A model generated the notes under the pieces. The model was not told where the DNA came from, made no database searches, and saw only the letters and a list, made by a program, of their open reading frames with translations. 64,000 nucleotides of DNA from an uncultured Gammaproteobacteria bacterium (lineage in GTDB: Bacteria > Patescibacteriota > Microgenomatia > Levybacterales > GWA1-39-11): assembly GCA_964627245.1 (NCBI GenBank), contig CAZVGS010000002.1, positions 90,923 through 154,922 on the forward strand. Direction: 5' to 3'. Below are positions 7,438-24,264 of this stretch, piece after piece. How positions within the stretch are numbered: the first letter of the stretch is position 1; each line of letters opens with the position of its first letter. A program made the position numbers and the translations under genes.

Positions 7438-8064
7438 TTATTTACAAAAATAATTTGGCGCGTCTTGCCACGATTGGTTACCTGAGTTATCTATTTTTGC
7501 AAACTCGATGTGCAGGTGGGGACCGGATCCTGTGCTACACCCCGATTGGCAAATCTGAGCTCCTTTTTCTCCAGAGTAAATTTCCCCCCCGCCACTTCCG
7601 GGAGCAGTGTGGTGGAACTGTATCCAGTATTGGTCTTGGGTCTCCTCATCGGTTCCCCCATAGTATTGTATGGCCGTTATTCCATCGGGTCCAATGGTTT
7701 GGTGGCTAAAAGTCCATCTTATTTTTTTCCCGTTAACAAGGGGCATATAAACTGGATCTAGTGGTTGGGCGCCTATGTCCATCGCGTAAGCAAGGCTATT
7801 GTAGTTGCAAGGATAGCTTTCGTATCCAATTCCGCAATGCCCACAACCTGGGACAGGTACAGACCTGCTGCCGCAGGTGATGTTTCCGTTTGGAATCGGA
7901 CAGGAGGTTGCGTCTATGCTTTCGGGGCCACTAGAGCCTTGGGGGGGACTCCCGACTTTAGTTGTAACAGTGTTTGAGCTGTGCTCTTGAGAATAAGCAG
8001 CGACCGTTAAGAGAACCACTAATAGCAAGGGCAGTGTTAGAATGATTATTTTTTTCATGGACAA
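7438..8064 (-). CDS. secreted M23-family (LytM-like) metallopeptidase
   Basis: 208 aa; signal peptide; Cys-rich; C-terminal M23 HxH motif GPHLHIEF. Confidence 0.55.
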   Translation of the reverse strand: MSMKKIIILTLPLLLVVLLTVAAYSQEHSSNTVTTKVGSPPQGSSGPESIDATSCPIPNGNITCGSRSVPVPGCGHCGIGYESYPCNYNSLAYAMDIGAQPLDPVYMPLVNGKKIRWTFSHQTIGPDGITAIQYYGGTDEETQDQYWIQFHHTAPGSGGGEIYSGEKGAQICQSGCSTGSGPHLHIEFAKIDNSGNQSWQDAPNYFCK

Positions 8065-8588
8065 AAATCGGGATACGGGCCGAATTTTTCGTTATCTGGT
8101 ATGGATTTTGCAATCTCAAAATTTAAGTAAAACATTAAGGGGAGTTTGCATATCCCCTCGTCGCTAAAGCCTTTTTGCCTTAAGAAAGAGATAACGTCTT
8201 CTTTTGCTTTGGAAATTTGAGTAGTGATAATTTCAGCCTCAAAATCATTTGGTGCTTTTACATACTCCAGTCTGTAGGAGTTGGTGGAATTGATTATTCC
8301 CGAGTTTCCGTCAAGCTCTGAAATAATTTGACTTCTTAAGGTTTTGTCTGCTGTCAGGCCTGGCGTTGGTCTTGTGGTTACAACCACCAGCAGCTTGTCT
8401 GTTGATTCCTTGCTATATTCAACAACAGGATCATCTATTTTCCTTTCATTGCTAGCGGTGGATGTAGGGGATGGCGATTCTGTTGACGTGTCTTCTCCCC
8501 CATTCTTCAGGCTCTCAAGGAAGGTTATTCCTATGAGAATGAGTATAAAAAGAAAAATTCCGGTTCCGATTGCAAAAATTCTTTTCAT
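8055..8588 (-). CDS. hypothetical membrane-anchored protein
   Basis: ORF 8055..8618; internal Met (MKRIFAIGTGIFLF...) at 8588 avoids overlap with the upstream gene; one N-terminal TM; no family recognised. Confidence 0.35.
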   Translation of the reverse strand: MKRIFAIGTGIFLFILILIGITFLESLKNGGEDTSTESPSPTSTASNERKIDDPVVEYSKESTDKLLVVVTTRPTPGLTADKTLRSQIISELDGNSGIINSTNSYRLEYVKAPNDFEAEIITTQISKAKEDVISFLRQKGFSDEGICKLPLMFYLNFEIAKSIPDNEKFGPYPDFCP

Positions 8589-8589
8589 G

Positions 8590-9573
8590 TTAATTACTTG
8601 CGCACCCCCAATACGCAAAAGATGAGTTTATTAGATCTCTATTATATGTTACCGCATTTGATGTTTGAGAACTCCAGCCGACATCTCCATGGTCAAATTG
8701 TCCATTCCTCCCTTGTCCCATTTGAAAAAGTCCCCATGCTCCGACCGGATCAACGGCTGAGCCGTTGTACGCATTTGGATTGTACCCGCTTTCACAGGGC
8801 ACAATCTCGAAATACCATTTGTTAGCATTGCTAGGGTCAAGGCTTTGGAGGAGTCTGAATAGTGCATCTTTCGTGAATTGGCAGTCCGGATCACCAAAAT
8901 TTGCGCCAATAGGACTTGTTGCTAAGTTGTATTTCCCGCTGCAGCTGTTAGCGGTAGGATTTGCTCCGGCAGATGCACCCGATGCAACACCTGCATAGAC
9001 CGTATTTGTGATAAGTATATCGGGAGCCGTTGGGCGGAGGGTAAATGTAAAAGAATTTTGGTTTTGAGACATGGGCCAGGATATTTGGCCATTTTCGTAT
9101 GTATATGCTCCGGTCGCTTCAACAAAAGAAGTGTTGTCGGGTAAGATGTCGTAAACGACGATATCTGAAAGTGGCGTAGTCGCAACCGAGGGATTATAGG
9201 TTACGCTCACGGTGTACTGCAACTGCTCTCCATTATTTATTTCAACAGGGCCAGTCAGGGTCAGCGTTAGGCCCGGAATTGTTTGTTTGGGTTGAGATGA
9301 GTCTGTTGGAAGCGTTGGGATTGACCCTCCGGGAATTGGGTCCATAAGTCCGAAAACGATTGAAAAAAAGGCTAGAGCAAGAAGCGCGCCGATAATTATT
9401 GCACCTAAAGTCAGCGGCCCTCCGGGGAGAAAGCTGAACAGCCATCGAGCCGCTTGTATTAATTTTTTCCCCGTGCGGTATATTTTTTTTAGATTTTCTA
9501 CAGAGTCGGAGACGCTTTGTCCATCACGCTTTTTTTGATCTTTTTCATTATCAATACTTGCGATGTTTTCCAT
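8590..9573 (-). CDS. membrane-anchored protein with DUF11-like repeat domain and C-terminal transglycosylase-like (Rpf-like) domain; candidate VirB1-type cell-wall hydrolase
   Basis: 327 aa; N-terminal TM; central region resembling conserved-repeat-domain proteins (LQYTVSVTYNPSVATTPLSDIVVYDILPDNTSF); C-terminal CESGYNPNAYNGSAVDPVGAWGLFQM resembling the Transglycosylase-like family consensus CESGGNW...G.YGGLQF. Confidence 0.55.
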   Translation of the reverse strand: MENIASIDNEKDQKKRDGQSVSDSVENLKKIYRTGKKLIQAARWLFSFLPGGPLTLGAIIIGALLALAFFSIVFGLMDPIPGGSIPTLPTDSSQPKQTIPGLTLTLTGPVEINNGEQLQYTVSVTYNPSVATTPLSDIVVYDILPDNTSFVEATGAYTYENGQISWPMSQNQNSFTFTLRPTAPDILITNTVYAGVASGASAGANPTANSCSGKYNLATSPIGANFGDPDCQFTKDALFRLLQSLDPSNANKWYFEIVPCESGYNPNAYNGSAVDPVGAWGLFQMGQGRNGQFDHGDVGWSSQTSNAVTYNRDLINSSFAYWGCASN

Positions 9574-9579
9574 AAGGCT

Positions 9580-11718
9580 CTATTTTGGCTGTTGGCCTTG
9601 AAGCGGGAAAGACGATCCTTGTTGCGGGGAAGAAGGGATGGGTGGTTGATAGGTTGGGGTTTGGAAAGGAGGTTGGGTTGATTGAATGGTGGGGGGTACT
9701 AACGGCAGCGATTGTCCGGTCAGAGGAGTGGAGAGTGGGGTTGGGGTGTTTGTGAACTGTTGCCCCGGCGGATTTTGGGTACCCGGAAACTGTGGCGCGG
9801 ATTGGAGGGGTGGCGGCTGTTGCTGTTGTGGGGGGGTGCTTGGGGGAGGTGCTTCAAGCTCTCTTTCCATGGTGTCTTGGGGCCTTGAAGTAACAAGGTC
9901 GTACTCGAATTGAGATGCAACAAACTGAGCCGTTACGTGATTTTGACCTGCAAAAAGAAGACCTTCTCCAACCTGTGCCGTTAGGAGATATTGCTTTTCT
10001 CCCTCAGAAAGATTTAAGGTTTTTGCAAGCGCCTCTACTTCTGATGAGCCTTGCTTCAGTAATATCTGCATCGAGGAGCTTGAAAGTATAGCTTTTCCAT
10101 AGTCTGATGACAGAAAGTCTTCGATGTCTTGAGTAAGAGTAGTGAGTCCCAAATAATACTTACGGCAACGCTTTGCAATTCCCTGCAGAAACGAAGCCGA
10201 GTCAGGGTATTTCATCATGTACCAGGCCTCATCAACGATAAGTAGTCTCTTTTTCATTTTTGTTCTAACCCTTGTCCATATAAAATCCAAAATAACATGC
10301 ATGGCAATAGGTCTTAACACATCCTCAAGCTGTTTAAGTGAAAAAACAGTAAGCTGGTTTTTCACGTCATAATTGGTCTGGTGATTGAAAAGACCGGAAA
10401 ACCCTCCCTTGACGTATTTTTCAAGTCTAAATGCAAGCTCTTTTGCGTCCGCCTCCTCCATGTTGAGAAGGGTTTTGTAAAGATCTTCAAGAATTGGGGG
10501 TTCGTTTTTGTATGTTGAGGGATCCGGGGTAATCCCCTTTTGCTTGTAGGCAAGAACAATTGAGCGGTCCAGTATTGCTTCCTGCGTTGCGTTCATTTCT
10601 CCCATCATGGTTTTAAACAACCCATGTACGCTTAAAATTTTTGTTCCTAGCTGTGCCTCCGATTGGTCATCTGGCATAAGGGCGAAGGGATTTATCTTTA
10701 TCTCCGAATCTTTGGAAAAAGCAACATACTCTCCACCTAATGAGTCGCAAAGCACCTTGTACTCATCTTCGGGATCTATTATCATAACCTCGGCATCAAA
10801 CATCATTTGTCTCAAAACCTCAAGCTTAACAAGAAATGACTTACCGGAGCCGGATTTCCCAAAAACAACAGAATTGGCATTCTCAAACGAGAATCTGTCA
10901 ACCACAACAAGCGAATTATTTAGAGTATTTATACCGTAGAGTATACCGTTGGGATGCGATATTTCGTATGAGGTAAAGGGAAAAGTGGAAGCGACTGAGG
11001 TTGTATCCATGTTGCGCGTTGAGAAAAGCTTGTCAATTCCCGTTGGCAGAGTGGTCTTAAATCCGTCTTCCATCTGAAGGGTTGCGGGTTTTATCACCAA
11101 TAGATTGGATGACAAAAGAGACATGAGCTCTTTTGAGCGGAGATTGAGGTCTTCAAGGTCGCCTGAGGCAAGAGTTACGTAAAGCCCGAATTGATAAAAG
11201 CGCTCAAGACCTCTGGCTAACTCTTCCCGAAGCGCAATTGCATCCTCCAAAGACGCTCTTATTTTAGGATCCGGCTCAAGACCTTGCTGGGTGTCTGACT
11301 CGATTGTTGCTTCCATCTCGGCAATTTTACGCCTCAAGTTGGAAAGTACATCTTTTGACTCAACCGGGTATATGAACATAGAGATATTCATCGTTTCTTT
11401 GTAGTCGATAAGTATCGAAAGCCAGTTGGGTGAAACCTGACGGGGGTAATCAACGACAAAAAAAGTGCGGTAATATGTGTCGCCGACTCTTATGTTTTTG
11501 AAATCTACCTCAACCGACGAGGGAGCAATGATATCAACTATTCCTACAGATCCCTGCTTTAGAGCCTCTGTGCTTTTTGCATTTTGGGCAGGAGTGGGCG
11601 CTGCGGGAGGTGCTTGGACCGGCTGCTGTTGGGCATTTTGCACGGGTTGACCCTGAGCCTGTTGCGCTGTATTTGATTGGGGAGGATTTGGTTGTTCTTG
11701 TTTCTTTTTTCCAAACAT
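9580..11718 (-). CDS. virB4: type IV secretion ATPase VirB4 (Gram-positive PrgJ/TraE/TcpF-type) with low-complexity Pro/Gln-rich N- and C-terminal tails
   Basis: 712 aa; Walker A GKSGSGKSF, Walker B LLIVDEAWYMM; N-terminal core IAPSSVEVDFKNIRVGDTYYRTFFVVDYPRQVSPNWLS matches the Gram-positive VirB4 N-domain; roughly 50 aa N-terminal and 90 aa C-terminal Q/P-rich tails. Confidence 0.85.
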   Translation of the reverse strand: MFGKKKQEQPNPPQSNTAQQAQGQPVQNAQQQPVQAPPAAPTPAQNAKSTEALKQGSVGIVDIIAPSSVEVDFKNIRVGDTYYRTFFVVDYPRQVSPNWLSILIDYKETMNISMFIYPVESKDVLSNLRRKIAEMEATIESDTQQGLEPDPKIRASLEDAIALREELARGLERFYQFGLYVTLASGDLEDLNLRSKELMSLLSSNLLVIKPATLQMEDGFKTTLPTGIDKLFSTRNMDTTSVASTFPFTSYEISHPNGILYGINTLNNSLVVVDRFSFENANSVVFGKSGSGKSFLVKLEVLRQMMFDAEVMIIDPEDEYKVLCDSLGGEYVAFSKDSEIKINPFALMPDDQSEAQLGTKILSVHGLFKTMMGEMNATQEAILDRSIVLAYKQKGITPDPSTYKNEPPILEDLYKTLLNMEEADAKELAFRLEKYVKGGFSGLFNHQTNYDVKNQLTVFSLKQLEDVLRPIAMHVILDFIWTRVRTKMKKRLLIVDEAWYMMKYPDSASFLQGIAKRCRKYYLGLTTLTQDIEDFLSSDYGKAILSSSSMQILLKQGSSEVEALAKTLNLSEGEKQYLLTAQVGEGLLFAGQNHVTAQFVASQFEYDLVTSRPQDTMERELEAPPPSTPPQQQQPPPLQSAPQFPGTQNPPGQQFTNTPTPLSTPLTGQSLPLVPPTIQSTQPPFQTPTYQPPIPSSPQQGSSFPLQGQQPK

Positions 11719-11719
11719 A

Positions 11720-12373
11720 TCAAACGATTACATTTTTAATATCTTGTGAATCAAAATCAACGGTAATTGAGTCGTTGTTGAGAATTTCATAATAAAGTTT
11801 TATCAACTCTTCATGCGACAATGGTCTTGCCATAAGACCCATTCTTTCAACCTGAGCCTGAATAACAGCCCTTTTTGAAATCAAAGCGTTTTTTGCCTGA
11901 TCCGCGAAGGGTCCGCTCGTGCCTTGCTTGGATTTTGCTTGTTGTGGCGCACTGCCCGGAACGACGCTTGCCTCAAGGTAAGAGTACGGAACCACTATGT
12001 ATATCTTTTTATCCAAAAGACCTTCGTTTTTTACCAGCTCATCAATGAATTGCCTGTACATTGTTAAATGCTCTTTGAGTTTTTGGTTTTGAAGTGATTC
12101 GATTTTTTGATCCAAAAGTTTTAGGTAGTTACCCATATCAACTCTTTTTGAGACAATTAAAATTTGTATAGGAAATGAAAGTGAATTTATGAGAGACATA
12201 TATCCGTAAATTCTTGCGTTCTGCTCATCTGCTGATAAGAGAAAAAAATTAACGGATGAGATCTCAAGAACACAGCAGGCATTTTTTCCCTTAAAGAGTA
12301 CTATGTCACCAACTATGTCGACAATTTCGGTAAAGTCTTGTGTTGTTGAGTGGATTTTGTCTTTTTTTGACAT
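11720..12373 (-). CDS. hypothetical protein in T4SS block
   Basis: 217 aa, soluble, no recognisable motif; translationally coupled between the PrgI-like gene and virB4. Confidence 0.35.
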   Translation of the reverse strand: MSKKDKIHSTTQDFTEIVDIVGDIVLFKGKNACCVLEISSVNFFLLSADEQNARIYGYMSLINSLSFPIQILIVSKRVDMGNYLKLLDQKIESLQNQKLKEHLTMYRQFIDELVKNEGLLDKKIYIVVPYSYLEASVVPGSAPQQAKSKQGTSGPFADQAKNALISKRAVIQAQVERMGLMARPLSHEELIKLYYEILNNDSITVDFDSQDIKNVIV

Positions 12374-12376
12374 ATA

Positions 12377-13687
12377 TTATGCTTGCTGTGCGGTTTGGGG
12401 TGCCTGGTTCTCAAAAAGCTCGCGTCTTAGTCTTTCCCGCTGGTCAACAGAAACAATCTCGAGGGGCTCGAATAAATTTCCATCAAGTGCTATGTGTATT
12501 TGTTCAAATTCGTGTTGTTTTCTCGGGTCCTCCAGAAGAACATTGTATTCGCCGTCGGGAAGCGGGGTTGCGGCCGCAAATTGCCCAAGCGCATTAGTCT
12601 TAAAAGCTCTTACGGGAATTCCCTGAAGATCCATTATCTCAACCAATATATTCGGAAGTATTCTCCCTCTTGGGTCTTTGATTATACCCAAAACAATATT
12701 TGGGGCATCTGGAAGACTTGGAAATCCACCTTTCAGAGAGGTTTCTTTCGAAAGCGTTGTAACATTTTGAGATTCATTGGGAATTACTGTTGGGATCTTT
12801 GCTTCATTTCCTTGAACGACCGTAAGATCCTTAGGCGCTTGGGGGGGCGCTTGTTGCTGGGTCTGGATGGGAGGCTGTTGGGGGATCAGGTTTTCCATTT
12901 TGATCTCCTCAGGCTTTCCCCCTTCAAATACGGGCTTTGAATCTGTTTCCTGGACAGCCGGCGAAGGTTTTGCTATCGGGGTCTCCTTCGGAAGATTGGC
13001 CGGCGAGACAACTTTTATTGCATCTGAAATGCTTGTTTGAGGAATAGCAGACGGCTGTGCTATTTGGGTAGAACGCTGAGTTTCATTGGGGGGGGAGTCT
13101 ACTTTTTGGACTTGAGGGCTCGCCGAATGCTGGGATTCATTTAAGTAGTTATTTATATTTAAGAGCATTGCCTGCTCGCGCTCGTCGGGCCGGTAGTTCT
13201 TTTTAAGCGCCCCGTATAGAAGAGCTCTTTTTGAGGAGAGGGCACTATTATTTTCGGTTTTTTTCACCTCTATTTTTTGGGATGCTGTGCTTTGAGGTGA
13301 GAAAAATTCGCCGATAATTACCTCGGCACCCCTTTTTTTGTATATGTATTGGTTTTCGGCAGGAAGTGCCTTCAGGAAATTCTTTGCCATTACATCCATC
13401 GGACGCCCTTCAATAGGAACAAAAGCAAGCATTACGCCAAAGCTTCCAAAAAGTATGCTCAAAGGAATTTTTATGAAAGGTGTCATCGGCAAGATAAAAC
13501 AAACTGCGGCAACTATTCCGCCTCCTAAAATATAAAGAAATTGCTTGACCGTAACGCTTCCAATAAGCTTGAATTTAAATCCTGTAACGTCCTGCGGAAT
13601 AGGGTGGTTTTCCATAATAATAACAAACACACCAAGTTGATGCGCCGTTGTTAAGCGTATAACGTGAAAATTTTGTCTGCAAGACAA
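12377..13687 (-). CDS. PrgI/VirB3-like two-TM protein with long Pro/Gln-rich linker and C-terminal beta-sandwich-like domain
   Basis: N-terminus DVTGFKFKLIGSVTVKQFLYILGGGIVAAVCFIL...PIEGRPMDVMAKNFLKAL matches the PrgI-family two-helix layout that precedes VirB4 in Gram-positive systems; a more likely start is Met at 13615 (MENHPIP...); C-terminal 110 aa (GRILPNILVEIMDLQGIPV...) resembles a carboxypeptidase-regulatory/prealbumin-like fold. Confidence 0.5.
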   Translation of the reverse strand: MSCRQNFHVIRLTTAHQLGVFVIIMENHPIPQDVTGFKFKLIGSVTVKQFLYILGGGIVAAVCFILPMTPFIKIPLSILFGSFGVMLAFVPIEGRPMDVMAKNFLKALPAENQYIYKKRGAEVIIGEFFSPQSTASQKIEVKKTENNSALSSKRALLYGALKKNYRPDEREQAMLLNINNYLNESQHSASPQVQKVDSPPNETQRSTQIAQPSAIPQTSISDAIKVVSPANLPKETPIAKPSPAVQETDSKPVFEGGKPEEIKMENLIPQQPPIQTQQQAPPQAPKDLTVVQGNEAKIPTVIPNESQNVTTLSKETSLKGGFPSLPDAPNIVLGIIKDPRGRILPNILVEIMDLQGIPVRAFKTNALGQFAAATPLPDGEYNVLLEDPRKQHEFEQIHIALDGNLFEPLEIVSVDQRERLRRELFENQAPQTAQQA

Positions 13688-13738
13688 TCAAAGTGTGTCA
13701 AAACAGATATACCTTTGAGGCTGGTTGTGAAAAGAAGA

Positions 13739-15811
13739 CTAAAGAGCCCCCGACCAAGCGGCTCCGCCCGCGGCTTTTGCCCCAGCGCCTGCCGCAACAG
13801 CAATAGGTGCTATTCCAATCCCCGCAACCGCACCAACTCCAAGAATTGCAGCAAGCCAGATAAGCCACTTCATCTTGAAGTCGGGTCTTATGCCTTGAGC
13901 CTCAAGGTTTTTAATAATTCCTTGGGCTTCTTTCGATTTTGAAATTGCATCGGATAGCTTCCCAGAGAAATTTTGTTCTAAAAGTTCCCATTCATGTTTT
14001 TTGAGGCCAATTTTATGTGTTCCGGGTATTCTGTCCTTCAATCTACTTCCCAACGTGCGGGCCAAGAACATGTCTTTGAAGAGCTTGTTTCTGAGAGTCT
14101 CGCCGTGTTTTGAATATGCTTCCTCAAGCCGTTTCTTTTGATCCTCACTTAACTTTGTTAAATCTACAGTGCGGTAATCGACTGGGTCAGGAATGGGGTT
14201 GCCATCTTCATCAATAAGAGTGAATCCAAGCTCGCGTACCAACAACCTTTTGACCCCATCTTCACCTTCATAAGCAAGCATTCTAACGTCTGTATTGATT
14301 TGTGCAGTATCGGAATCTTTAGACCTAGTATTTGGGTCATATCGTATCCATCTTGTTTCCATTGCTTTTTTGATTGCTTCATCGTCTGAATTGTTTTGTT
14401 TTTCTTTGTCCTCAGTTAGAGCTTTTTTCTCAAGCCCTTCTAGCTCATCGTATCTTTTCTCCAGAGTAGAGGCGGCCGCATCAGCCATAACGTTTTCAAG
14501 TCTCTCTATCAGATCTTGTTCAGCAGCCAGCCTTGCATTTTTGCTTGCCTTTTCGCTTTTCAAGGAATCAGACTCTTTTCTCTTTATAATGTCATCACTA
14601 GCCTTGATTTCTTTTCCGAGTGCCGATGCTTCTGAAATGCTTTGCGCAATACCACTTACATAAATTCCCGCAGCGTCTTTTGCTGGTGAATATTTAGTTA
14701 ATAAATCGACAAAGTTGTTTATGTCTGTGTCTGACACAACCGTTCCTTTTAGTACATTTATGTCACCTAATAAATTGTTTATGTCATTTTGCAGTCCGCC
14801 CCTTTCGGCAGGCTTCGATGTTTTATTAAGTCTTTCTTTTGTTTGGGAGATTTCCCTTTGCTTCTCGACTATTGCTTGAAGCTCGGTAAACTTAGGTATA
14901 TTTGTTCCATTTATGACAAGTCCACCCAAGCTTTTCATAATTGTTTCTGGTGCCATTCCCTGGTCTATCCAGCTTTTTATCTGATCTTCTTGTGCAGGAG
15001 TTAATGGAGGAGTAGCGGAAATATCAGCACGTATAACATTTAGAATATTTGTTTTTGCCGTGTCGAGTTTCGGTTCAGCAATTGCCTTATCGGCTTTCGC
15101 TTTTGAATAATCTTCGTCAGTTGTTACATCCGGAAGCTTTTGGGCATCTACAGCTATGTTTTTCATAAGTTTTACAACTTCATTTCTCATCACAGGATCT
15201 TTGGCAAGCGTTTCTTCGATGTAACGTCTTCTTGCACCATCATTGAGAGATGATAGTTCTGGAAATAGTTCCTGGACTGTTGAGCTTTGAAGAATTAGGT
15301 TCAAACCATCCTCTCGCGCATTGATGAAATCTCTTGTATTACTTATGCTTGTATCTCCCCTTGCTACTCTTTCTCTAATAACTACATCAATGGATTTATT
15401 CCTTCTTCCTGCCTCTGCAGTGATATCAGCATACTGGATATAATTACTAACACCCTCAATTAGTTGTTTGGCGGTTTCGTGAGAGTTTTTTTCAGCATTG
15501 TCTGGATTTTTCGTACTATCCGGTTCTGTGGTTTGTTTTCCTGTGGCACTCACAACCTCATGCGCTTTACCTGCTCCGAATGCCAATTCCATAGCAACTG
15601 CTTGATTTGTTGAGAAAGAGCCGGCTCCGGATTCTCGGGCTGCTGTTATTCTTTCTTTCCCGGTAGCACCTTTCTCTTTAAGAGCTCTTAGTCTTTTTTG
15701 TCTCTCAAGCGTTTCGGGGCGTGTCGTTGGGATCGTGCGTGTTTCGCTTCCATATTGCAGTACATCTATCGGAGCAATTTTGGGTGTTTCTGGTGTTGAA
15801 ATGTCCGGCAT
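13739..15811 (-). CDS. large coiled-coil protein with C-terminal Gly/Ala-rich hydrophobic anchor (tail-anchored); hypothetical T4SS-associated
   Basis: 690 aa, no signal peptide, extensive coiled-coil or charged repeats, C-terminus WLIWLAAILGVGAVAGIGIAPIAVAAGAGAKAAGGAAWSGAL; no family recognised. Confidence 0.4.
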   Translation of the reverse strand: MPDISTPETPKIAPIDVLQYGSETRTIPTTRPETLERQKRLRALKEKGATGKERITAARESGAGSFSTNQAVAMELAFGAGKAHEVVSATGKQTTEPDSTKNPDNAEKNSHETAKQLIEGVSNYIQYADITAEAGRRNKSIDVVIRERVARGDTSISNTRDFINAREDGLNLILQSSTVQELFPELSSLNDGARRRYIEETLAKDPVMRNEVVKLMKNIAVDAQKLPDVTTDEDYSKAKADKAIAEPKLDTAKTNILNVIRADISATPPLTPAQEDQIKSWIDQGMAPETIMKSLGGLVINGTNIPKFTELQAIVEKQREISQTKERLNKTSKPAERGGLQNDINNLLGDINVLKGTVVSDTDINNFVDLLTKYSPAKDAAGIYVSGIAQSISEASALGKEIKASDDIIKRKESDSLKSEKASKNARLAAEQDLIERLENVMADAAASTLEKRYDELEGLEKKALTEDKEKQNNSDDEAIKKAMETRWIRYDPNTRSKDSDTAQINTDVRMLAYEGEDGVKRLLVRELGFTLIDEDGNPIPDPVDYRTVDLTKLSEDQKKRLEEAYSKHGETLRNKLFKDMFLARTLGSRLKDRIPGTHKIGLKKHEWELLEQNFSGKLSDAISKSKEAQGIIKNLEAQGIRPDFKMKWLIWLAAILGVGAVAGIGIAPIAVAAGAGAKAAGGAAWSGAL

Positions 15812-15812
15812 A

Positions 15813-16918: not shown

Positions 16919-17260
16919 CTATATGGTAAGGTTAAAAAAGTTAACCCCAAGCGCCGAGCCTACAAAATTGATAATAAAAAAGGAGAAAAAGACGACCAAA
17001 AGCCCTATTATCGCGTAAATAATGGTGCGTCTGGCGCTTTCAACTTTTGTTTTGTCCCCCTCAGACATTATGTAATTTGCGCCTCCATATATTAGAAAAA
17101 GCAGAGCGATAATAATGCTTGCGATAAGAAGCCAGGTGATAACAAGTCCTATTATTCTTCCTCCATCTCCCTCAAGTCCTCCTGTCGGAACCCCGGAGGG
17201 CGCAGCTATTTCAATGGGTTCGCCGTCAGTGCCCGGAATGGTTAATGATAAAAGTTTCAT
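16919..17260 (-). CDS. VirB2/TrbC-like pilin paralog 3
   Basis: 113 aa; YIMSEGDKTKVESARRTIIYAIIGLLVVFFSFFI motif; Gly-rich N-terminal region. Confidence 0.55.
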   Translation of the reverse strand: MKLLSLTIPGTDGEPIEIAAPSGVPTGGLEGDGGRIIGLVITWLLIASIIIALLFLIYGGANYIMSEGDKTKVESARRTIIYAIIGLLVVFFSFFIINFVGSALGVNFFNLTI

Positions 17261-17262
17261 AA

Positions 17263-17688
17263 TTAATTAAAGCCCGGAATTTTTATAATGTCTCCTGCTA
17301 TTACTGATAGTATCACAAGCGAGAATACTATAAAAAGAAGCCCGACAATTGCCGATGTTAAGGTCTCGCGTGCTCCCTGGACAATTTCTTTATTGGCTCT
17401 TGAAACGAGGAGCTTGTATCCTGAAAAAATAATAATTATTAGTGCTGCAAATCCTCCCAACGAAAGTGCAATTGAGAATATTTTGGTAACAACCACAACC
17501 GGGCTTGAAACATCAACTATTCCTATTGCTGTATCGCACTTATTATTCGGACAAGGTTCCTTAGATGTTGCTGAACCTCCTCCCCCCGGGGGAGGATTGC
17601 TGGCAGTGTCGGCTAGGGTTGGAAAAGTAATAAACATAAGAAGGGTTATTGCTAAAAGCAACGGCAGGTTTATTAAAAATTTTTTCAT
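17263..17688 (-). CDS. VirB2/TrbC-like pilin paralog 4 (with signal peptide)
   Basis: 141 aa; signal peptide; Cys pair (EPCPNNKCD); LLVSRANKEIVQGARETLTSAIVGLLFIVFSLVI motif. Confidence 0.55.
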   Translation of the reverse strand: MKKFLINLPLLLAITLLMFITFPTLADTASNPPPGGGGSATSKEPCPNNKCDTAIGIVDVSSPVVVVTKIFSIALSLGGFAALIIIIFSGYKLLVSRANKEIVQGARETLTSAIVGLLFIVFSLVILSVIAGDIIKIPGFN

Positions 17689-17725
17689 ATATATATGGTA
17701 CTTTTAATAACGCTCCAATTCAACA

Positions 17726-19057
17726 TCACGCCAATTTGTAGCCGGTACCTTTTAAGGTCTGGATGTAATGGGGATTTGCAGGATCTATTTCCACCTTTTT
17801 TCTTAGCCTGTAAAATATCTGATCCAATGCTTGGTCGGTGACCCCCTCCTGGGATTTTTGCTCACTCCATGTGGCAGATATGAGTTCGTCTTTTGTGCAG
17901 ATCTTCCCCCTATTGAGGATTAAGTACTTTAATAGTCTGAATTCCAGCGGAGAAAGTCTGTTTGAGACCTGAATATCTCCTATATATATTTCATTTTTTG
18001 CTTCATCGTAAGAGAGTGATTCGGTGCTTTTGACAGGAATATTATTGATGAATGATTCGAAAAGGGGTATGGTAATCCCATTCTCATTGTATAGAAAGGT
18101 ATTTACTAAATAAGGAAATTCTTCCTTTGTTTTTTCAAAGGAAACGTTTTCTTTTAGTGCAAGCTGTTCTGCAGGAAGAAGCGCATGCCAAATCTCATCA
18201 AGGGCTTTTTGTATGGTGGATCTTTTTTTAAGGAATTCTTCGATATTCTCAACAGGCTCATTTTCAGTTGTAACTGCCTCGAAAGATAATTTTGAAAGTC
18301 TTGAATGTCCACCTGTCATCTCCAATATCTTTCTTTTTTGCTCTGGATCAAGCTTTTTTCTAGCGGCTTTTTCGATATATGAGGCTCGAAAATCAAGCCA
18401 TACATCATCACTGAAAGACACATAGACAACATTTTCTGCTATAAGATCATGAAAATCAGTGAGTAGTGAGGAGTCTAAGAGTTCTTCAAGAGGTCTTACT
18501 AGTGAAAATATACACCCAAATCTATATTTTGCACGGTTTCTTAGTGAGTTGAGATTATTGAAAAATTGAGGGGTAATGCTTGGTATTATGCATTCAAATT
18601 TGTCAAAAAGTAAATTTATGGTTAACTTTTTTTCAATGGATAGGTAGTCGATGCTTTTTTTCAGGCTTTGAAAGAGCATAAGCTCATCTCCACCGGATAG
18701 CCCTTCTTTCAAAAAGTCGTTAATTTTTTGAGAGTCTTTCATCATCCGTCTTTCGCCAAGCGAAAAAGAGAGGGAAATTAGGATAAATTTTAATATTTCA
18801 AAAAGAGACTTGTCATTTACTTCGGAGCAATCCAGGTAGACAAAGTGCAGTAATTTTTCGTAGTCGCCATAATTGTTGTATCTCGCATCTCTATTATAGG
18901 AAAGAAGGCGAAGAACATTGCTTTTTCCGCACCCCGGGATACCTACGAGTTGAGTTGAAAGGCCTTTTTCAAGGTACGGAATTATCAATTTGAACTCGCG
19001 TTCACGTGTTTTTGGAGGGTAGAGCGAATCAAAATATTTTAACGGCTGTAAATCCAT
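17726..19057 (-). CDS. P-loop NTPase fused to a C-terminal OmpR/PhoB-type winged-helix DNA-binding domain (putative regulator of the T4SS-like locus)
   Basis: 443 aa; Walker A GIPGCGKSN near the N-terminus; C-terminal 80 aa (LSPLEFRLLKYLILNRGKICTKDELISATWSE...YRLRKKVEIDPANPHYIQTLKGTGYKLA) fits the trans_reg_C pattern. Confidence 0.6.
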   Translation of the reverse strand: MDLQPLKYFDSLYPPKTREREFKLIIPYLEKGLSTQLVGIPGCGKSNVLRLLSYNRDARYNNYGDYEKLLHFVYLDCSEVNDKSLFEILKFILISLSFSLGERRMMKDSQKINDFLKEGLSGGDELMLFQSLKKSIDYLSIEKKLTINLLFDKFECIIPSITPQFFNNLNSLRNRAKYRFGCIFSLVRPLEELLDSSLLTDFHDLIAENVVYVSFSDDVWLDFRASYIEKAARKKLDPEQKRKILEMTGGHSRLSKLSFEAVTTENEPVENIEEFLKKRSTIQKALDEIWHALLPAEQLALKENVSFEKTKEEFPYLVNTFLYNENGITIPLFESFINNIPVKSTESLSYDEAKNEIYIGDIQVSNRLSPLEFRLLKYLILNRGKICTKDELISATWSEQKSQEGVTDQALDQIFYRLRKKVEIDPANPHYIQTLKGTGYKLA

Positions 19058-19097: not shown

Positions 19098-22013
19098 TTG
19101 AGAGGAACATATCAAGTTGACGAAGTACACTTCCCATACAATGAGCGCATGGAAAACGAATTGACACATTACCAAGCCTTGGCCAATAATGTAGTTAGGA
19201 CTACTACGGGTTTTGATAGAAATCCGCGGTCAAAACTTATGGAAGAAAACGGCGAAATCAATAGTCTCGAGAAAGAAGTTGTTAGTGAGGAAGAGCTTAA
19301 GAAAAGAGCAGTGCGTCAGCTGTCCGAAAGACAAAGAAAAGTAGAAGAAGCGTGGCAGAAAGTATTAAAAGAAAAGCAGGCTAGAGGAGAAAAAGTAACG
19401 CAAGAGGACGTGGAGATAGCAAGAAGGGCTAGTGAAAAAGGTGAAATGCCTGTAAATGTCGGCGGCGCAAGCGACGGATTTGAGGGTTTTAATGCAGAGA
19501 AATATAAACAGACCAAGTTCGGTCAATTCGCGCAAGAGTTAAAAGTAGCAGGGGAAAAAGGGGAGGTTACTAATGAGTTATTGCAGGATATAGGAAATAG
19601 GGCAAGGGCAGCTGTTGTAAGTGGGCAGGATCAATTTGTTTACGACCAATTTGCTGGAGAAATAAATGAGATAGTCACAAGATTGGCAGCTCAAGAGCAA
19701 AGTAATCAAGAACGAGCCGGTCAAGAGCAGAGTAGTCAGGGGGATGTTAAGACAAGAACGATTGAAGAATTGCTGCAAAGCAGGGTTAATGCTTCTCTTG
19801 AAAAGAAAGAAGGAAGAAGCAGTAATCCTCGTTCGATTCAAGAAGTTGCGTTAAGTATTATAAATGACGAGGGACCTGATAGGTGGGGTCCAAACGGCAC
19901 TTATCCTCTCGTAGAGTTGATCTACGATGAAAATGGAGAGCCAAAATACAAAACTAATTATAAAGGTGAAAAAACACTAGATCCTCAAGTAAAGCTTAAT
20001 GAAAAAAATTTTGTGAGATGGTTTCGGGAGCGTATGATGTATCACCACGCAAGTAATTCAAGAGATGAAAGCTTGCAGCTCGGAAACCTTGTGGGTATAA
20101 CCAGTGAATTTGGAAGTACGATAAACATTTTTTCAATGGATAAAGATCGTGCTCAGTATTTCCTTGACGAATCAACCGGGACTGTTATGGATAAACTAGC
20201 CAATCAATTAAAAATGGAGTTATGGCTTTTTGGGAACATGAGAAATTACGACCTTTTGTACCAAAAATATATGGGGAGCGACTCCGACCTTCCAAAATTC
20301 TTGTCCCAGCTTCATGAGAAAGAGGAAATCACCCAGCCTCAGAGTCTTGAGACTATCATGACATTGCCTAAAGAATTTGGTGAAGATGGTGACACGTCAG
20401 TCGGAGACGGCATAAGGAAGGCATACGAAATATACTATTATGCGTCTGACTATAACATGCTCAAAAAAGTTTTGGGAGAAAATTCCATATTTTTCAAAAG
20501 AGAAGGATTTGAGAATGCATTAAGAATTATTGAAGGGTTGAATCCAACCGATGCCATACCTCAGTCATCACAAAAAATAATAGACTCGGTATTTGACGGA
20601 AAGAATGTTAATCCAGAAAAATTTATAAAACTCATGAATCCATTCAATGAAAAGAACAAGCCTGAGTTTGCGAAAAAGCTTATCCGCGAAATGGTAAGGC
20701 AGGTTATTTCCAGAAAGTATGACTTAGAATATGGCTTGACGGAAATGAGGGTTGTGAATGGGGTATTTAATAGTGAGGATGTTAAGGAGAGAGATCTGGT
20801 CAGAAAGGATTTAGAATACGCTGAAGCTTTTGCTTGGGTTTTAACTCATTGGACTGGGGCAGCAGCAAGAAATGACACAGGCGCAATCGGTTTTGACGCC
20901 TTCACAAAGACTATGAAATTAAGAGAATACAGAAAAGGCCAGTCCGGGTTAAATAGGGCGGGGTCTTTTGGGAATGAATATGATCTTGGAGTATTTAAGG
21001 GCTTAGCGGTCGATTTTTTTAACGGAATAACTGTTGAGAAAAAGCTTGAGGATAAAGGTAACAATTACACTCCCTTTGAGATCTTTAGGATAATGAGTGA
21101 TATAGAGGACTCATCTCTTCCCGAGGACGAGAAAAAAAGGCAAAAGACCCAGTGGGCGAAGAGGCTTAACTTTGAGCAATACATACAAAGATCATATTCC
21201 GGGGATCACATCAACCGTGCTTTTGAAATATTCCACGCCACGCTTGGGGCCGAGGAGATGAGGCTTGAGGAGATAGTCAAGTGGGACCCTTTTAGGGGAA
21301 TAATATTGGATAGGGGTAAATTTGAAGAGCAGGTTAAGGAGAAATTTCTAAAGCCCATAAGATATGCATTCAGAACATACGCCCAGCTTGATATGGGCAA
21401 GATGCAGAGACTTCAAGTCGGTGGCTTTGGTTCCAATGACCTCCCAATTTATAAGGATGTAACCACGGCAGAAACCATATTTGGACCTGAGGTGTTAAAA
21501 GATATAAGGCCAATGGCACAACAAAGATATGAAGGTTGGAATAGTGAGGATAAAGGTAAATTCGATGAAAGGCTAAAGCAACGTGGAGTAGATTTTAACT
21601 CGCTTTCTGCGGATGAGAAAAAACAGCAAATATGGCAGGACTATTTATCATCTCAAGACGGTAAAGATATTCTTTGGAAAAGGGCGGCCATGGCAAAGAT
21701 TGCGGCCCACATAAAATCTCACAGAGAATTTGGTAACGGGTATACACAATTTACAGCGGGTATGGTAGAAACGTTTTACCAGGCTCTCGAATCAATAAAG
21801 GCAATGGATATTAATGAAGGAGAGGATGATACAGAGCTTTCCTACGCCCAAAGCTTTCTGTCCAAGGAGGATATTGAATGGATAAGAAAAAGAAGCGGAA
21901 CAACTCACAAGAGGCTATTTATGGTTGACTTCTTAGGCAAGGGAGTCGGAACGGGGGTTGCAAAAGGCATGTGGGAAGGAGCAGGGGTTATTATCAAAGA
22001 TATATTCAAGTAG
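19098..22013 (+). CDS. large hypothetical soluble protein (971 aa) of the T4SS-like block
   Basis: long ORF beginning with TTG at 19098 (first ATG at 19149, MENELTHYQ...); acidic, no TM, no recognisable catalytic motif (no clear relaxase HUH triad or P-loop). Confidence 0.45.
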   Translation: MRGTYQVDEVHFPYNERMENELTHYQALANNVVRTTTGFDRNPRSKLMEENGEINSLEKEVVSEEELKKRAVRQLSERQRKVEEAWQKVLKEKQARGEKVTQEDVEIARRASEKGEMPVNVGGASDGFEGFNAEKYKQTKFGQFAQELKVAGEKGEVTNELLQDIGNRARAAVVSGQDQFVYDQFAGEINEIVTRLAAQEQSNQERAGQEQSSQGDVKTRTIEELLQSRVNASLEKKEGRSSNPRSIQEVALSIINDEGPDRWGPNGTYPLVELIYDENGEPKYKTNYKGEKTLDPQVKLNEKNFVRWFRERMMYHHASNSRDESLQLGNLVGITSEFGSTINIFSMDKDRAQYFLDESTGTVMDKLANQLKMELWLFGNMRNYDLLYQKYMGSDSDLPKFLSQLHEKEEITQPQSLETIMTLPKEFGEDGDTSVGDGIRKAYEIYYYASDYNMLKKVLGENSIFFKREGFENALRIIEGLNPTDAIPQSSQKIIDSVFDGKNVNPEKFIKLMNPFNEKNKPEFAKKLIREMVRQVISRKYDLEYGLTEMRVVNGVFNSEDVKERDLVRKDLEYAEAFAWVLTHWTGAAARNDTGAIGFDAFTKTMKLREYRKGQSGLNRAGSFGNEYDLGVFKGLAVDFFNGITVEKKLEDKGNNYTPFEIFRIMSDIEDSSLPEDEKKRQKTQWAKRLNFEQYIQRSYSGDHINRAFEIFHATLGAEEMRLEEIVKWDPFRGIILDRGKFEEQVKEKFLKPIRYAFRTYAQLDMGKMQRLQVGGFGSNDLPIYKDVTTAETIFGPEVLKDIRPMAQQRYEGWNSEDKGKFDERLKQRGVDFNSLSADEKKQQIWQDYLSSQDGKDILWKRAAMAKIAAHIKSHREFGNGYTQFTAGMVETFYQALESIKAMDINEGEDDTELSYAQSFLSKEDIEWIRKRSGTTHKRLFMVDFLGKGVGTGVAKGMWEGAGVIIKDIFK

Positions 22014-22014
22014 G

Positions 22015-24264
22015 CTAAGCAGATCCTTCCGGCTTTTCGGGCTCATCAGGTGCTGTGTCCGGTTGGGGTGCTTCCGGAGCCGGGCTATCTGCTGCTGGGT
22101 GCTCGGGTTCTGTCTCACCGCTTCTTCCTATTTCGCTTCCGTCAGCTTCTCCGCCTGCCATACGCGCTCTAGATCTTTCCATGACTTCGCGTTTTGTTTT
22201 TTCAGCAAGTGTTTCTCCCTCAATAGATGGAGAGGTGGCTCCCGAAGTGCCTCCGGGCCTTGTAGCACTAGCAATTGTAGATTTTTTCTTGCCACCAAAA
22301 ATTGAAGGTAGCCAGCCAACTTTATGCTCTGACTTCTCCTTTTCACTCATTCCCCTCATGCTTAATCCTTCATTTGTATGCGTTTGTTTAATTCCTCCGC
22401 CCGTAAGGGCTCTGCCAATCCCTGCAAATTTTCTCTGAGCCCATAGGGAGCCTTCCTTTGGAGCGCCAAGTGCGTCTTTACCGAATAATTCGTGTTTTAT
22501 CCCAGATATTGGCTTGCCCAAGGCTCCTTGCCCAGTACCAAGAGCACGTCCTATGGAGCTTGCAAATTTGAAGTCTTGAGCCTTTAGAGTCTCTTTTACT
22601 ATATTTGCAACCTCAGGTGTCAGAAGCAATATTCCCATGCCTAAAATTGCCGCAAACCCGGCCATGCTATTGCTGAAGTCACCGACAAGAGGTGGTATAA
22701 AAACATTTCCGTTGCTTTGTCCGACACTGTCAATTAAGACCTTACCTAAAAGAAGCATCATATAAGTTGCGGGAAAGACTGCTAAATTTGCAACTACGCT
22801 TCGAAACCAAGACCCGACCCCCATCTGTACCCCCGGGAGTATGCCAAATGCTATAAAGAAAGGAGCAAAAATTAGAAAAAGGAAAAGGTAAATATAGGCT
22901 TTTATCAGCTGAAACCATAACCGGAACATTGCAGTAAAAATAGCAATAAGTATGATAAAAAAGGCAATAAGGTTTGGTAAGAGTTCTCTTAATAAAGTTT
23001 CTGTAAGTGCAGCAACTGCTCCTCCAGCTATTGTTCCAGCTGGCCAGCCCATTAAAAAGCCAGGTATTACTTGAAATCCTCCCCCTCCCCCTATTCCCAG
23101 GAAAGATCCTTGTATTGAAAACCCCCCACCAGGAGTATTTGATACTAGAGTTCCAACTTGTATTCCAGCAACAAAACCTGCTCCTATACTCGCTGCATGT
23201 ATTAAATAATTCACAAAACTCTGATTTGCAAAACTTCCCACAGTACCTTTCGCTATATTGCCTAGACCTCCAATCAGCCCTCCTATGAGCGGGATCTTAC
23301 TTAGCAATGAACCAAGTTCACTTAGACCGGGGATATGTTTTATTATACTGCCAAATATATCACCAATACCTTTAATTTCGGGTAGGCCAGGAATACTTGG
23401 GCCGCCTCCGGGGCCAAGACCTATAGCATCTTTAATAGAACCGACAACGGTTCCTGTTACGTGAGTTGCTATTCCGGCAATCCCTCCGGCATTAGTGCCG
23501 CCTGCCAATTGATTGGCTGCCGTAAAAGGATTTGCTCCCTGAATATCCGATGGTTTGAGCCCGCCGACATCGGCCCCGGGAATACTTGCCATAATTCCGT
23601 AAATAAAATAAGTGCTAATTCTCATAAGATCAATCATAAATCCGACAATTGCGTAGGAAAGAGTAATAAAGACAAGGCCGATTATTATCTTTGGAATTGC
23701 ATTTTGAATTGTCATAACACTTCTAGGGTCAATTTTTACACGAAACATTATTCCAACTCCGATAACGACAAATATAAGAACAAAAAATAAATACATTATA
23801 TTTCTAAAAGCTTCCCAGATAGGTAAAAATGGAGTAAGTCCGCGGAACCCATCCCCGGTCCCGAATTGCGCATTGGCAGTCTTTGTGAGGCCAAAATTTG
23901 AGGCAACGTGCGCAATGTATTGACTTCCTGATGCAGGAAAATCATAAGTAGCTGCAATTCCCCTGTTCATAAATCCCAAAGCGCCTCCGCTTTCAACAAA
24001 CCCGATTTTCCCATCATTCCCGCTTGCTCCCAGGCATTTTCCTTCAGGGTTAATGGGGTTAATTCCCGAAAGCTGGCAGGAGATGGCAGACATCAGCTCA
24101 ATAAATACAACCTGTGAATAGGTACTTAAATTTTGCGGTACATTTTGCTCAATATTTAAGGGGAGGGATTGATTTGGGGGGGGAGTTAAATTTTGGGCAA
24201 AGGATGAGTTAGTAGAAAGTGCTAGGAAAAATACAGCAAAGATAACACCAAATATTTTTTTCAT
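22015..24264 (-). CDS. VirB6/TrbL-like polytopic membrane protein with disordered Pro/Glu-rich C-terminus
   Basis: 749 aa; signal peptide, then at least six hydrophobic helices separated by Gly-rich loops, hydrophilic C-terminal tail; position next to other T4SS genes; family assignment by topology only. Confidence 0.45.
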   Translation of the reverse strand: MKKIFGVIFAVFFLALSTNSSFAQNLTPPPNQSLPLNIEQNVPQNLSTYSQVVFIELMSAISCQLSGINPINPEGKCLGASGNDGKIGFVESGGALGFMNRGIAATYDFPASGSQYIAHVASNFGLTKTANAQFGTGDGFRGLTPFLPIWEAFRNIMYLFFVLIFVVIGVGIMFRVKIDPRSVMTIQNAIPKIIIGLVFITLSYAIVGFMIDLMRISTYFIYGIMASIPGADVGGLKPSDIQGANPFTAANQLAGGTNAGGIAGIATHVTGTVVGSIKDAIGLGPGGGPSIPGLPEIKGIGDIFGSIIKHIPGLSELGSLLSKIPLIGGLIGGLGNIAKGTVGSFANQSFVNYLIHAASIGAGFVAGIQVGTLVSNTPGGGFSIQGSFLGIGGGGGFQVIPGFLMGWPAGTIAGGAVAALTETLLRELLPNLIAFFIILIAIFTAMFRLWFQLIKAYIYLFLFLIFAPFFIAFGILPGVQMGVGSWFRSVVANLAVFPATYMMLLLGKVLIDSVGQSNGNVFIPPLVGDFSNSMAGFAAILGMGILLLTPEVANIVKETLKAQDFKFASSIGRALGTGQGALGKPISGIKHELFGKDALGAPKEGSLWAQRKFAGIGRALTGGGIKQTHTNEGLSMRGMSEKEKSEHKVGWLPSIFGGKKKSTIASATRPGGTSGATSPSIEGETLAEKTKREVMERSRARMAGGEADGSEIGRSGETEPEHPAADSPAPEAPQPDTAPDEPEKPEGSA

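Follow-up and report, generated by a model that had tools for sequence, protein, structure and literature searches.

The 64,000-nucleotide (nt) stretch analysed here (the window) belongs to contig CAZVGS010000002.1 of a Levybacteria (Microgenomatia) genome, and directly behind dnaA and dnaN it carries a block of genes for a type IV secretion system (T4SS). Patescibacteria account for much of bacterial diversity and rely on other bacteria as hosts. We regard the block as most probably a chromosomal and vertically inherited T4SS of the Patescibacteria clade, which would provide Levybacteria with a fibre or conduit for an essential interaction with the host. The locus belongs to a Patescibacteria system that has already been described, with a few parts still unnamed. 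This assignment is carried by the identities of the components, by a conserved gene order close to the presumed origin of replication and by the absence of mobility genes from the window.

For the comparison between genomes, the VirB4 protein of the window was scanned against one genome per species, which yielded 232 relatives, and every protein of the window was compared by tblastn with the loci of the best 80 of these 232 (the related loci; single loci are given as L numbers), with flanks of 10 kb that limit the counts for distal genes. VirB4 identity among the best 80 is 52-92%, and the informatively named records among them are metagenome-assembled genomes (MAGs) of Candidatus Levybacteria/Levyibacteriota or of a 'Patescibacteria group'. 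One VirB4 match lies on a complete chromosome of 762,565 bp.

Components of the secretion system

The block contains the following main genes (aa, amino acids; TM, transmembrane):

9580-11718, minus strand: VirB4 ATPase of the CD1110 (Gram-positive, MPF_FATA) type, 712 aa, assigned with Pfam and NCBIfam
11720-12373, minus strand: TrsD/TraC-like protein of 217 aa, equivalent to the N-terminal domain of VirB4, assigned with NCBIfam and PF26593
12377-13687, minus strand: extended PrgI/VirB3-like protein of 436 aa
16162-16458, 16464-16874, 16919-17260 and 17263-17688, minus strand: four VirB2-like pilins (T4SS_pilin, PF18895)
22015-24264, minus strand: VirB6-like polytopic channel subunit of 749 aa, assigned by topology and fold similarity
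8590-9573, minus strand: membrane-anchored protein of 327 aa with DUF11 and a lysozyme-like/transglycosylase domain, a VirB1 analogue
7438-8064, minus strand: secreted divergent M23-like peptidase of 208 aa, assigned by conserved residues, with the leader TVTTKVGSP at residues 32-40
17726-19057, minus strand: P-loop NTPase with a winged helix, 443 aa, the probable regulator of the locus
19098-22013, plus strand: soluble protein of 971 aa from an uncharacterised family, with a probable true start at 19149 (MENELT)

The VirB4 ATPase expected of a T4SS is present. The 712 aa protein matches P-loop_TraG in Pfam (8e-35) and reaches 405 bits with the NCBIfam model NF045971 (curated cutoff 325) for VirB4-like conjugal transfer ATPases of the CD1110 family, which confirms the Gram-positive type that had been proposed in a preliminary description of the sequence. 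This family is its best model, and most of its 80 best relatives come from MAGs of Levybacteria or Patescibacteria. The alignment to NF045971 spans model positions 177-732, and the usual N-terminal domain is missing. The adjacent 217 aa protein had been described as lacking a recognisable family, which did not hold: in NCBIfam it matches positions 97-235 of VirB4_plasma (2.4e-10) and TrsD (5e-5), both below the curated cutoffs, and a precomputed match links it to the TraC-like PF26593. Because the CD1110 model aligns from position 177 on and the 217 aa protein matches the VirB4 N-terminus, VirB4 is in effect split over two genes. A homologue of the 217 aa protein is present in 78 of the 80 related loci.

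The PrgI/VirB3-like identity of the 436 aa protein is likewise substantiated by a Pfam match to PrgI (6.6e-7) that passes the gathering score. Two TM segments are followed by a disordered linker and a conserved, β-sandwich-like C-terminal domain, for which CarboxypepD_reg gives a match below the cutoff (6e-4); within residues 300-425 the identity stays at about 50% even in distant loci. In 77-78 of the 80 related loci, virB4 has the TrsD-like and PrgI/VirB3-like genes as neighbours. The block probably derives from monoderm conjugation machinery (MPF_FATA, CD1110-like).

All four predicted VirB2-like pilins match PF18895 (1e-12, 7e-12, 1e-6 and 2e-5), three of them at or above the gathering score and the fourth just short of it (25.1 versus 26.6 bits), as the preliminary description had anticipated. 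Their pairwise identity is 28-45%, and the best NCBIfam match of each is the Mbov_0395 pilin-like family (1e-6 to 4e-4). A PF05857 TraX gene (six TM segments, about 230 aa) lies among the pilins in 11 of the 80 related loci, for example at 952-1647 of L001, and also at 5479-6168 of L086. TraX is the F-pilin acetylase family, and no TraX-like pilin acetylase was found in the 64 kb window.

The 749 aa protein was assigned to the VirB6-like channel subunits, as had been proposed before, on the basis of its polytopic topology and its predicted structure. Hydropathy indicates about six to seven TM segments, where VirB6/TrbL proteins have at least five, and the AlphaFold2 model shows long TM helices with confidence values (pLDDT) of 84-96 and a fold similar to that of solved VirB6-type subunits. 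Sequence profiles do not reveal this relationship: Pfam and NCBIfam gave no VirB6/TrbL/PrgH match, a profile search against PDB sequences returned nothing relevant, and none of 120 homologues among the matches listed has a Pfam domain. Compared with the inner-membrane channel subunits TrwI/VirB6 of R388 and DotA of Legionella, to which it is only 8% identical, the protein is much larger and adds a signal peptide, a Cys-containing ectodomain, a Gly-rich insert of about 190 residues and a hydrophilic C-terminal tail.

The gene also marks the end of four independent assemblies of one locus (L081-L084; Logan assemblies SRR20718477-80), which stop at one and the same point inside it, with 320 residues remaining (about position 23300 in window terms), at or near the Gly-rich insert. 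The strains may be heterogeneous there, or a repeat may disrupt assembly, as the shared end suggests.

The split VirB4, the VirB3-like and the VirB6-like protein together make up a complete complement of inner-membrane T4SS parts of the monoderm type. Two predicted cell-wall hydrolases are encoded as well. In the 327 aa protein the DUF11 domain is confirmed by Pfam (1e-6), and the C-terminal 120 residues contain an invariant Glu in a C-E-S context together with a G-L-F-Q-M motif. A profile built from 19 homologues of this C-terminus matches c-type lysozymes (best E value 0.0018), aligned on the invariant Glu, while a single-sequence search found only the lytic transglycosylase EmtA (E value 0.7) with the ES...GLxQ motif aligned. 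PHROG adds a transglycosylase match (0.0097), and Pfam gives none at 0.01. The label lysozyme-like/transglycosylase thus appears reasonable, and the narrower Rpf-like label given earlier is unsupported. In the 208 aa protein the Pfam M23 model PF01551 reaches only 13.4 bits (E value 0.092; cutoff 28.7), confined to the HxH region. Nevertheless, H76, D96, H152, H183 and H185, which comprise the Zn-binding and catalytic residues, are invariant in comparison with the canonical M23 proteins that occupy the same slot in L001 and L002 (Pfam 1.5e-23), and H76 and D96 are separated by a Cys-rich insert. We accept the protein as a divergent M23-like enzyme; the M23 peptidase of the preliminary description thus holds by its residues and misses the Pfam threshold.

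The 443 aa protein carries a Walker A motif (GIPGCGKS) in its N-terminus and an OmpR/PhoB-type winged helix (Trans_reg_C, 3e-19) at its C-terminus, in line with the earlier proposal of an NTPase with a winged helix-turn-helix domain. Its gene is located beside the pilins in 25 of the related loci, and in L086 and L087 as well. The orientation of the regulator flips among L068, L078, L086 and L087 relative to the window: in the window the regulator gene points the same way as the pilin genes, and in L086 and L087 it is aligned with the gene of the 971 aa family.

Conserved position next to the presumed origin and absence of mobility genes

The surroundings that bear on the nature of the block are:

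4382-5716, plus strand: dnaA (Pfam Bac_DnaA 1e-63, Bac_DnaA_C and DnaA_N)
5620-5899: cluster of DnaA boxes, a candidate oriC, at the 3' end of dnaA and in the dnaA-dnaN intergenic region
5845-6945, plus strand: dnaN, named after the preliminary description and found by tblastn beside dnaA in 63 of the 80 related loci
37024-39462, minus strand: VirD4-like coupling-protein homologue of 812 aa (TrwB_AAD_bind 1.7e-8, TraG-D_C 1.5e-4)

Nine of the 24 matches to TTATCCACA in the window (at most one mismatch) fall within the 280 nt of the DnaA-box cluster, and the cumulative guanine-cytosine (GC) skew has its minimum nearby. The clustering and the skew minimum make an origin at dnaA-dnaN plausible. 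The T4SS block starts 1 nt after dnaN with a dense minus-strand run (6946-19057), in which the intergenic spacing ranges from a 29 nt overlap to a 51 nt gap; beyond this run follow the 971 aa open reading frame (ORF) on the plus strand and the 749 aa ORF on the minus strand. The gene list and coordinates of the preliminary description were correct except for the start of the block, which had been placed at 7438 and is really at 6946. Transcription of the T4SS operon (6946-19057) proceeds in the direction of dnaN and the DnaA-box cluster, and the operon is convergent with dnaN in 63 of the 80 related loci; because of this convergence, its transcription runs head-on to the presumed direction of replication.

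Across genomes, the conserved order is dnaA-dnaN-(hydrolases)-VirB4-TrsD-PrgI-(variable cassette)-pilins-regulator-p971-VirB6-like. By tblastn, VirB4, TrsD and PrgI are present in 77-80 of the 80 loci, dnaN in 63, dnaA in 60, the pilins in about 50 and the regulator in 25, and the same gene order is found in the distant loci L085-L088. The preliminary description had proposed a check of synteny across related genomes, and this check shows that position and gene order next to dnaN/dnaA are kept in about 60 of the 80 loci, unlike the variable sites of an integrative and conjugative element (ICE). The conserved order therefore indicates that the block is a vertically inherited chromosomal feature of the lineage.

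A Pfam search for mobility genes, which covered nearly all ORFs of at least 100 aa across the 64 kb window, returned no domain of a relaxase, integrase, recombinase or transposase. Direct repeats of at least 16 nt in the first 30 kb occur at chance level; they are 16-34 nt long and imperfect, and none brackets the block. This agrees with the earlier statement that relaxase and integrase are missing. As neither mobility genes nor flanking repeats were found and the position is fixed, the reading as a conventional ICE is rejected, within the limits of current profiles. Together with the Levybacteria relatives and the conserved order, the absence of mobility genes upholds the proposal of a chromosomal, non-conjugative T4SS-like apparatus in a small-genome and possibly episymbiotic bacterium.

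The coupling protein is encoded outside the block, as had been noted. Besides its Pfam domains, the VirD4-like protein has NCBIfam matches to TraD/CD1115 (1e-12 to 1e-13) that stay below the cutoffs. Its gene is bracketed by tRNA-Ile(tat) (36931-37003) and two tRNA-Ser genes (39786-39877 and 40213-40298); a SpoIID-like gene (35153-36868) is located upstream, and there is no integrase nearby.

Parts with no assigned family

The block contains four further genes:

13739-15811, minus strand: helical protein of 690 aa with a single C-terminal TM anchor (residues 647-678)
15813-16157, minus strand: acidic helical protein of 114 aa with 18 homologues
8055-8618, minus strand: bitopic membrane protein of 187 aa with 20 direct homologues
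6946-7434, minus strand: membrane-anchored protein of 162 aa, encoded by the last gene of the operon (Pfam Big_5 0.0064, below the cutoff)

The largest protein of the locus, with 971 aa, probably starts at the Met codon at 19149, because the N-termini of its homologues indicate so. A word-index search revealed 12 relatives, and a full profile search extended the family to 320 cluster representatives with E values up to 1e-3, 291 of them below 1e-10. The members are roughly 850 to 1,890 aa long, lack a signal peptide or TM segment and share many nearly invariant polar residues. No Pfam domain is common to 41 diverse members scanned, no known fold was recognised, and a collection of 72,556 plasmids contains no match to the family. 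The gene is located beyond the regulator and is convergent with the VirB6-like gene wherever its context was examined (the window, L005, L024, L056, L061, L068 and three separately fetched distant members). Since this linkage to the locus is conserved, the earlier suggestion of a candidate new component is reasonable, and we infer that the protein may be a conserved cytoplasmic component of the T4SS or a dedicated substrate.

The 208 aa hydrolase led to a second particularity. An iterative search from this protein returned proteins with the same N-terminus and different catalytic domains. The common leader motif, x-[VICLT]-x-T-[KRNQ]-[VI]-G-[NTSDE]-[PSG], follows the signal peptide and occurs in 23 ORFs from 23 loci, one in each; in the window, only the 208 aa protein carries it. 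All 18 matches to a stricter version are located between virB4 and dnaN on the virB4 strand, and a reversed-sequence control of 2,891 ORFs gave no match to the leader motif. According to simple active-site motifs, the domains behind the leader are M23-like in 11 cases, HExxH in seven, CHAP/NlpC-like in four and unclassified in one, and Pfam matches among ten representatives include M23 (1.5e-23), CHAP (6e-10), M74-like (4.6e-5) and M57-like (0.008) domains. This exchange of catalytic domains behind an unchanging leader suggests that targeting or docking is a shared step, combined with selection for different peptidoglycan chemistries. The swapping in the hydrolase slot also fits an adaptation to differing host walls and can be taken as a hint of host-wall targeting; the target of the hydrolases may be either the cell's own wall, as for VirB1, or that of the host.

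The third particularity is the pair of 114 aa and 690 aa proteins. The 114 aa protein, which has no PDB or family match, has 18 clear homologues (E values 1e-30 to 1e-48), and for 17 of these the next gene downstream, on the same strand, encodes a tail-anchored helical protein. Sixteen of these partners have 580-740 aa and one has 249 aa (L026); the homologue in L003 stands without a partner ORF. Relative to virB4, the cassette can lie in one direction or the other, and about ten loci lack it. The 690 aa protein is only 22% identical in L005, versus 84% identity for VirB4 there. It has no family match in Pfam, NCBIfam or PHROG scans, and a word-index homologue search for its family profile retrieved only the query itself. 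By these comparisons, the pair represents a hypervariable, invertible cassette.

Other loci (for example L011 3149-7854, L057 2395-7049, L053 2912-7625) contain a different trio between pilins and PrgI in place of the pair, with proteins of about 115-123 aa, of 900-1070 aa without TM segments and of 400-470 aa, the last being tail-anchored and encoded on the opposite strand. The 900-1070 aa proteins were considered as homologues of the 971 aa protein and are not homologous to it.

A known function was sought for both proteins of the cassette. The profile of a sister subfamily of the 690 aa protein (A9) aligns with almost the whole of NheL1 and of MakE, components of ClyA-type pore formers (1.2e-5), the profile of the window's own subfamily (A10) has no Nhe/Hbl/Mak match, and Pfam HBL or ClyA match none of 17 family members. 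As the match comes from the sister subfamily only and lacks Pfam support, the assignment as a ClyA-type toxin was not adopted and is kept as a lead only. The 114 aa protein was also considered as a known chaperone and rejected, since no PDB profile matches.

For the 187 aa and 162 aa proteins, Pfam and NCBIfam scans gave no recognisable family. An iterated local search with such small membrane proteins drifted via signal-peptide similarity, and the family counts use first-round matches only. The 187 aa protein consists of an N-terminal TM segment and an extracytoplasmic domain of roughly 120 residues, in which C157 and C186 are invariant. This topology fits the bitopic pattern of VirB8/PrgL-like proteins; a PDB profile search gave no match, and a VirB8-like assignment was not adopted. 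The 162 aa protein has an N-terminal TM segment and a weak Ig-like match (Big_5), and its direct homologues occupy the same position in nine loci.

It is conceivable, if some way from probable, that the Levybacteria version of the system holds undescribed lineage-specific parts in the 971 aa family, the leader tag of the hydrolases and the variable cassette. The 971 aa family could be a new core or substrate-handling subunit and might replace the missing coupling or relaxase functions. The mature N-terminal motif (x-V-x-T-K/R-V-G-N-P) could be a tag that docks interchangeable hydrolases onto the pilus or the T4SS to breach host walls, and the cassette of the 114 aa protein and its tail-anchored partner of roughly 600-700 aa could encode a chaperone and a membrane-active effector.

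Proposed mechanism and alternative explanations

In the mechanism that we propose, the split VirB4, composed of the 217 aa N-domain protein and the 712 aa ATPase and docked on the extended PrgI/VirB3 protein, would form the motor at the membrane. The polytopic VirB6-like protein of 749 aa would provide the channel and the four Sec-exported VirB2-like pilins the pilus, while the membrane-anchored DUF11-lysozyme and the secreted M23-like peptidase would open the wall by cutting peptidoglycan. The P-loop/winged-helix protein would regulate the locus. The whole would act as a contact-dependent conduit to the host bacterium of the epibiont, exporting proteins or importing host material. Pilus assembly, host targeting and a transported substrate are presumed in this scheme, and because a relaxase is lacking, the machine would not be used for conjugation.

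Several points weigh against this interpretation. The absence of a relaxase was determined with Pfam and NCBIfam models only, and the VirD4-like coupling protein is encoded 13 kb from the locus, so that DNA transfer with an unrecognised relaxase can still be envisaged. VirB8-like and adhesin components were not identified in the locus. The hydrolases carry Sec signal peptides and, like VirB1, may serve solely to remodel the wall of their own cell. The membership of VirB4 in the Patescibacteria clade was judged from hidden Markov model scores and relatives, not from a phylogeny, and essentiality and host dependence are extrapolated by analogy from Saccharimonadia to Levybacteria.

Three other explanations, which partly overlap with a host-interaction T4SS, have to be considered. 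In a domesticated or still active ICE, DNA would pass from cell to cell by means of the T4SS, the distant VirD4-like protein and a relaxase that escaped recognition, for which the 971 aa protein is a possible candidate. VirB4 indeed scores above the curated cutoff for a family of conjugal-transfer ATPases, its nearest relatives outside the Candidate Phyla Radiation are found on Bacillota and Actinomycetota plasmids, a homologue of the type IV coupling protein (T4CP) is present in the window, and the 971 aa protein, which is large, conserved and cytoplasmic, has no assigned function. We nonetheless consider an ICE very improbable: the searches of the window revealed neither a relaxase, integrase or transposase domain nor att-like repeats, 63 of the 80 related loci keep the block next to dnaN, the 971 aa family is not represented in the plasmid collection, and relaxases were reported in only 103 of 3,035 Patescibacteria genomes, rarely near virB4, in a survey (PMC12102498).

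The system might also import DNA or other nucleic acids, like ComB of Helicobacter or Ced of Crenarchaeota, and thereby feed nucleotides to an organism that cannot synthesise them. VirB4 and the VirD4-like protein weakly match archaeal CedB/CedD (4.6e-9 to 1e-5); these scores are far below the cutoffs and also far below those obtained with conjugative VirB4 families. Import of host material by a T4SS has been proposed for Saccharibacteria, in which the classical competence system is dispensable (PMC11665869), but components specific to ComB or to Ced (CedA) were not seen, and sequence does not reveal the direction of transport. We consider import unlikely. If the VirB4 system instead only assembled VirB2-like fibres for host binding and moved no substrate, this would account for the four divergent pilin paralogues, for the TraX-like genes of the F-pilin acetylase family among the pilins of related loci and for the lack of a substrate-recruiting T4CP inside the locus. 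Patescibacteria, however, already have type IV pili for adhesion and motility (PMC12857230), and the conserved VirB6-like channel subunit and 971 aa cytoplasmic partner suggest more than fibre assembly; we rate a purely adhesive machine as decidedly unlikely.

Neighbouring genes and base composition

The left end of the window contains, in this order, truB, a ClpB-like gene, an AI-2E transporter gene, dnaA and dnaN. Past the VirB6-like gene follow DUF5667, nrdR and ribonucleotide reductase genes. A 77 aa ORF (24261-24494, minus strand) overlaps the DUF5667 gene (24349-24990, plus strand), is without homologues in the related loci and probably does not represent a gene. Farther downstream (46066-46890), a 274 aa protein pairs an ATP-cone with an Mrr-type restriction endonuclease domain, which is an unusual combination. 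The GC content of the window is low (about 0.39). It rises to 0.43-0.46 at 8001-14000 and 22001-24000, versus 0.33-0.41 elsewhere, and it is in these segments that VirB4, PrgI and the VirB6-like protein have their low-complexity stretches, which are Pro/Gln-rich or Gly-rich.

Comparison with known systems

The preliminary description overestimated the novelty of the locus. Published accounts (Wang 2023 Cell; Quinonero-Coronel 2025 Microb Genom; FEMS review 2025) draw the same picture of a Patescibacteria T4SS that is related to Gram-positive conjugation machinery and is characterised by pilin arrays, the absence of a relaxase, a distant T4CP and proximity to dnaA (PMC12102498, PMC10633639, PMC12857230). 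In the Saccharibacterium Southlakia epibionticum, the T4SS (SEML1_0006-0019) lies at the genome start and is essential for epibiotic growth; its cluster includes pilin genes, and neither a coupling protein nor a relaxase could be recognised (PMC10633639). This is the one species in which the Patescibacteria T4SS was tested for essentiality.

The survey of 3,035 Patescibacteria genomes describes a monophyletic VirB4 clade nested in MPF_FATA, with TrsD and PrgI adjoining virB4, and reports a split VirB4 for Patescibacteria. Arrays of two to 11 VirB2-like genes occur especially in Microgenomatia and Saccharimonadia, T4CP genes are far off, and proximity to dnaA/dnaN is found in Paceibacteria and Microgenomatia (PMC12102498). 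The window shares with this clade the MPF_FATA-related VirB4, the adjacent TrsD, the PrgI/VirB3 protein, the divergent VirB2-like array, the peptidase and lysozyme genes immediately downstream of virB4, the absence of a relaxase, the T4CP encoded elsewhere and the position next to dnaA/dnaN. Thus, it adds no new kind of system and offers a well-resolved Levybacteria example.

The window differs in its VirB6-like protein. VirB6 homologues are scarce in Microgenomatia and VirB8 is mostly undetected according to the survey (PMC12102498), whereas the window provides a structurally supported VirB6 candidate for this class and a large conserved family genetically tied to it. Further extras of the locus are this conserved 971 aa family, the cassette of 114 aa and 690 aa proteins and the leader-tagged polymorphic hydrolase, none of which was found described in the available parts of Wang 2023 or the 2025 survey.

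Among the Gram-positive MPF_FATA systems (CTn2/CD1110, pCF10 Prg, pGO1 Trs), the shared features are the VirB4 family, PrgI, TrsD, a wall hydrolase beside VirB4 and the absence of VirB7, VirB9, VirB10 and VirB11. In contrast to these systems, no relaxase or integrase was found in the window, the T4CP is unlinked, and the locus is chromosomal and origin-proximal, with a conserved order, a pilin array and the NTPase-winged-helix regulator.

The best VirB4 matches in the plasmid collection come from Bacillota and Actinomycetota (30-35% identity), several of them annotated as CD1110 family. Closest is the 898 kb replicon of Pontibacillus sp. ALD_SL1 (NZ_CP062975.1; 35% identity), and the Mbov_0395/0397 families of a Mycoplasma ICE are grouped with its locus as near known relatives. 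This Bacillota replicon is typed non-mobilizable, and its locus (L089, 351801-361354) resembles the window in order, with genes for an Mbov_0395-family pilin-like protein, proteins of 780 aa, 117 aa and 275 aa, VirB4 and an M23 DD-metalloendopeptidase. Unlike the window, it has a single annotated pilin-like gene, no dnaA context and no 971 aa homologue; its 780 aa protein matches the VirB6-like profile weakly (E value 0.063). The Pontibacillus pilin-like protein is 32% identical to the 136 aa pilin of the window over 85 residues (E value 9e-12); monoderm VirB4 loci outside Patescibacteria can thus contain pilin-like genes. The origin of the pilins, by co-option from diderms or by inheritance from monoderms, was left open by the survey (PMC12102498). 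The homologues in Bacillota VirB4 loci bear on this question and suggest that the pilin may have come with the monoderm-type machinery, not from diderm systems.

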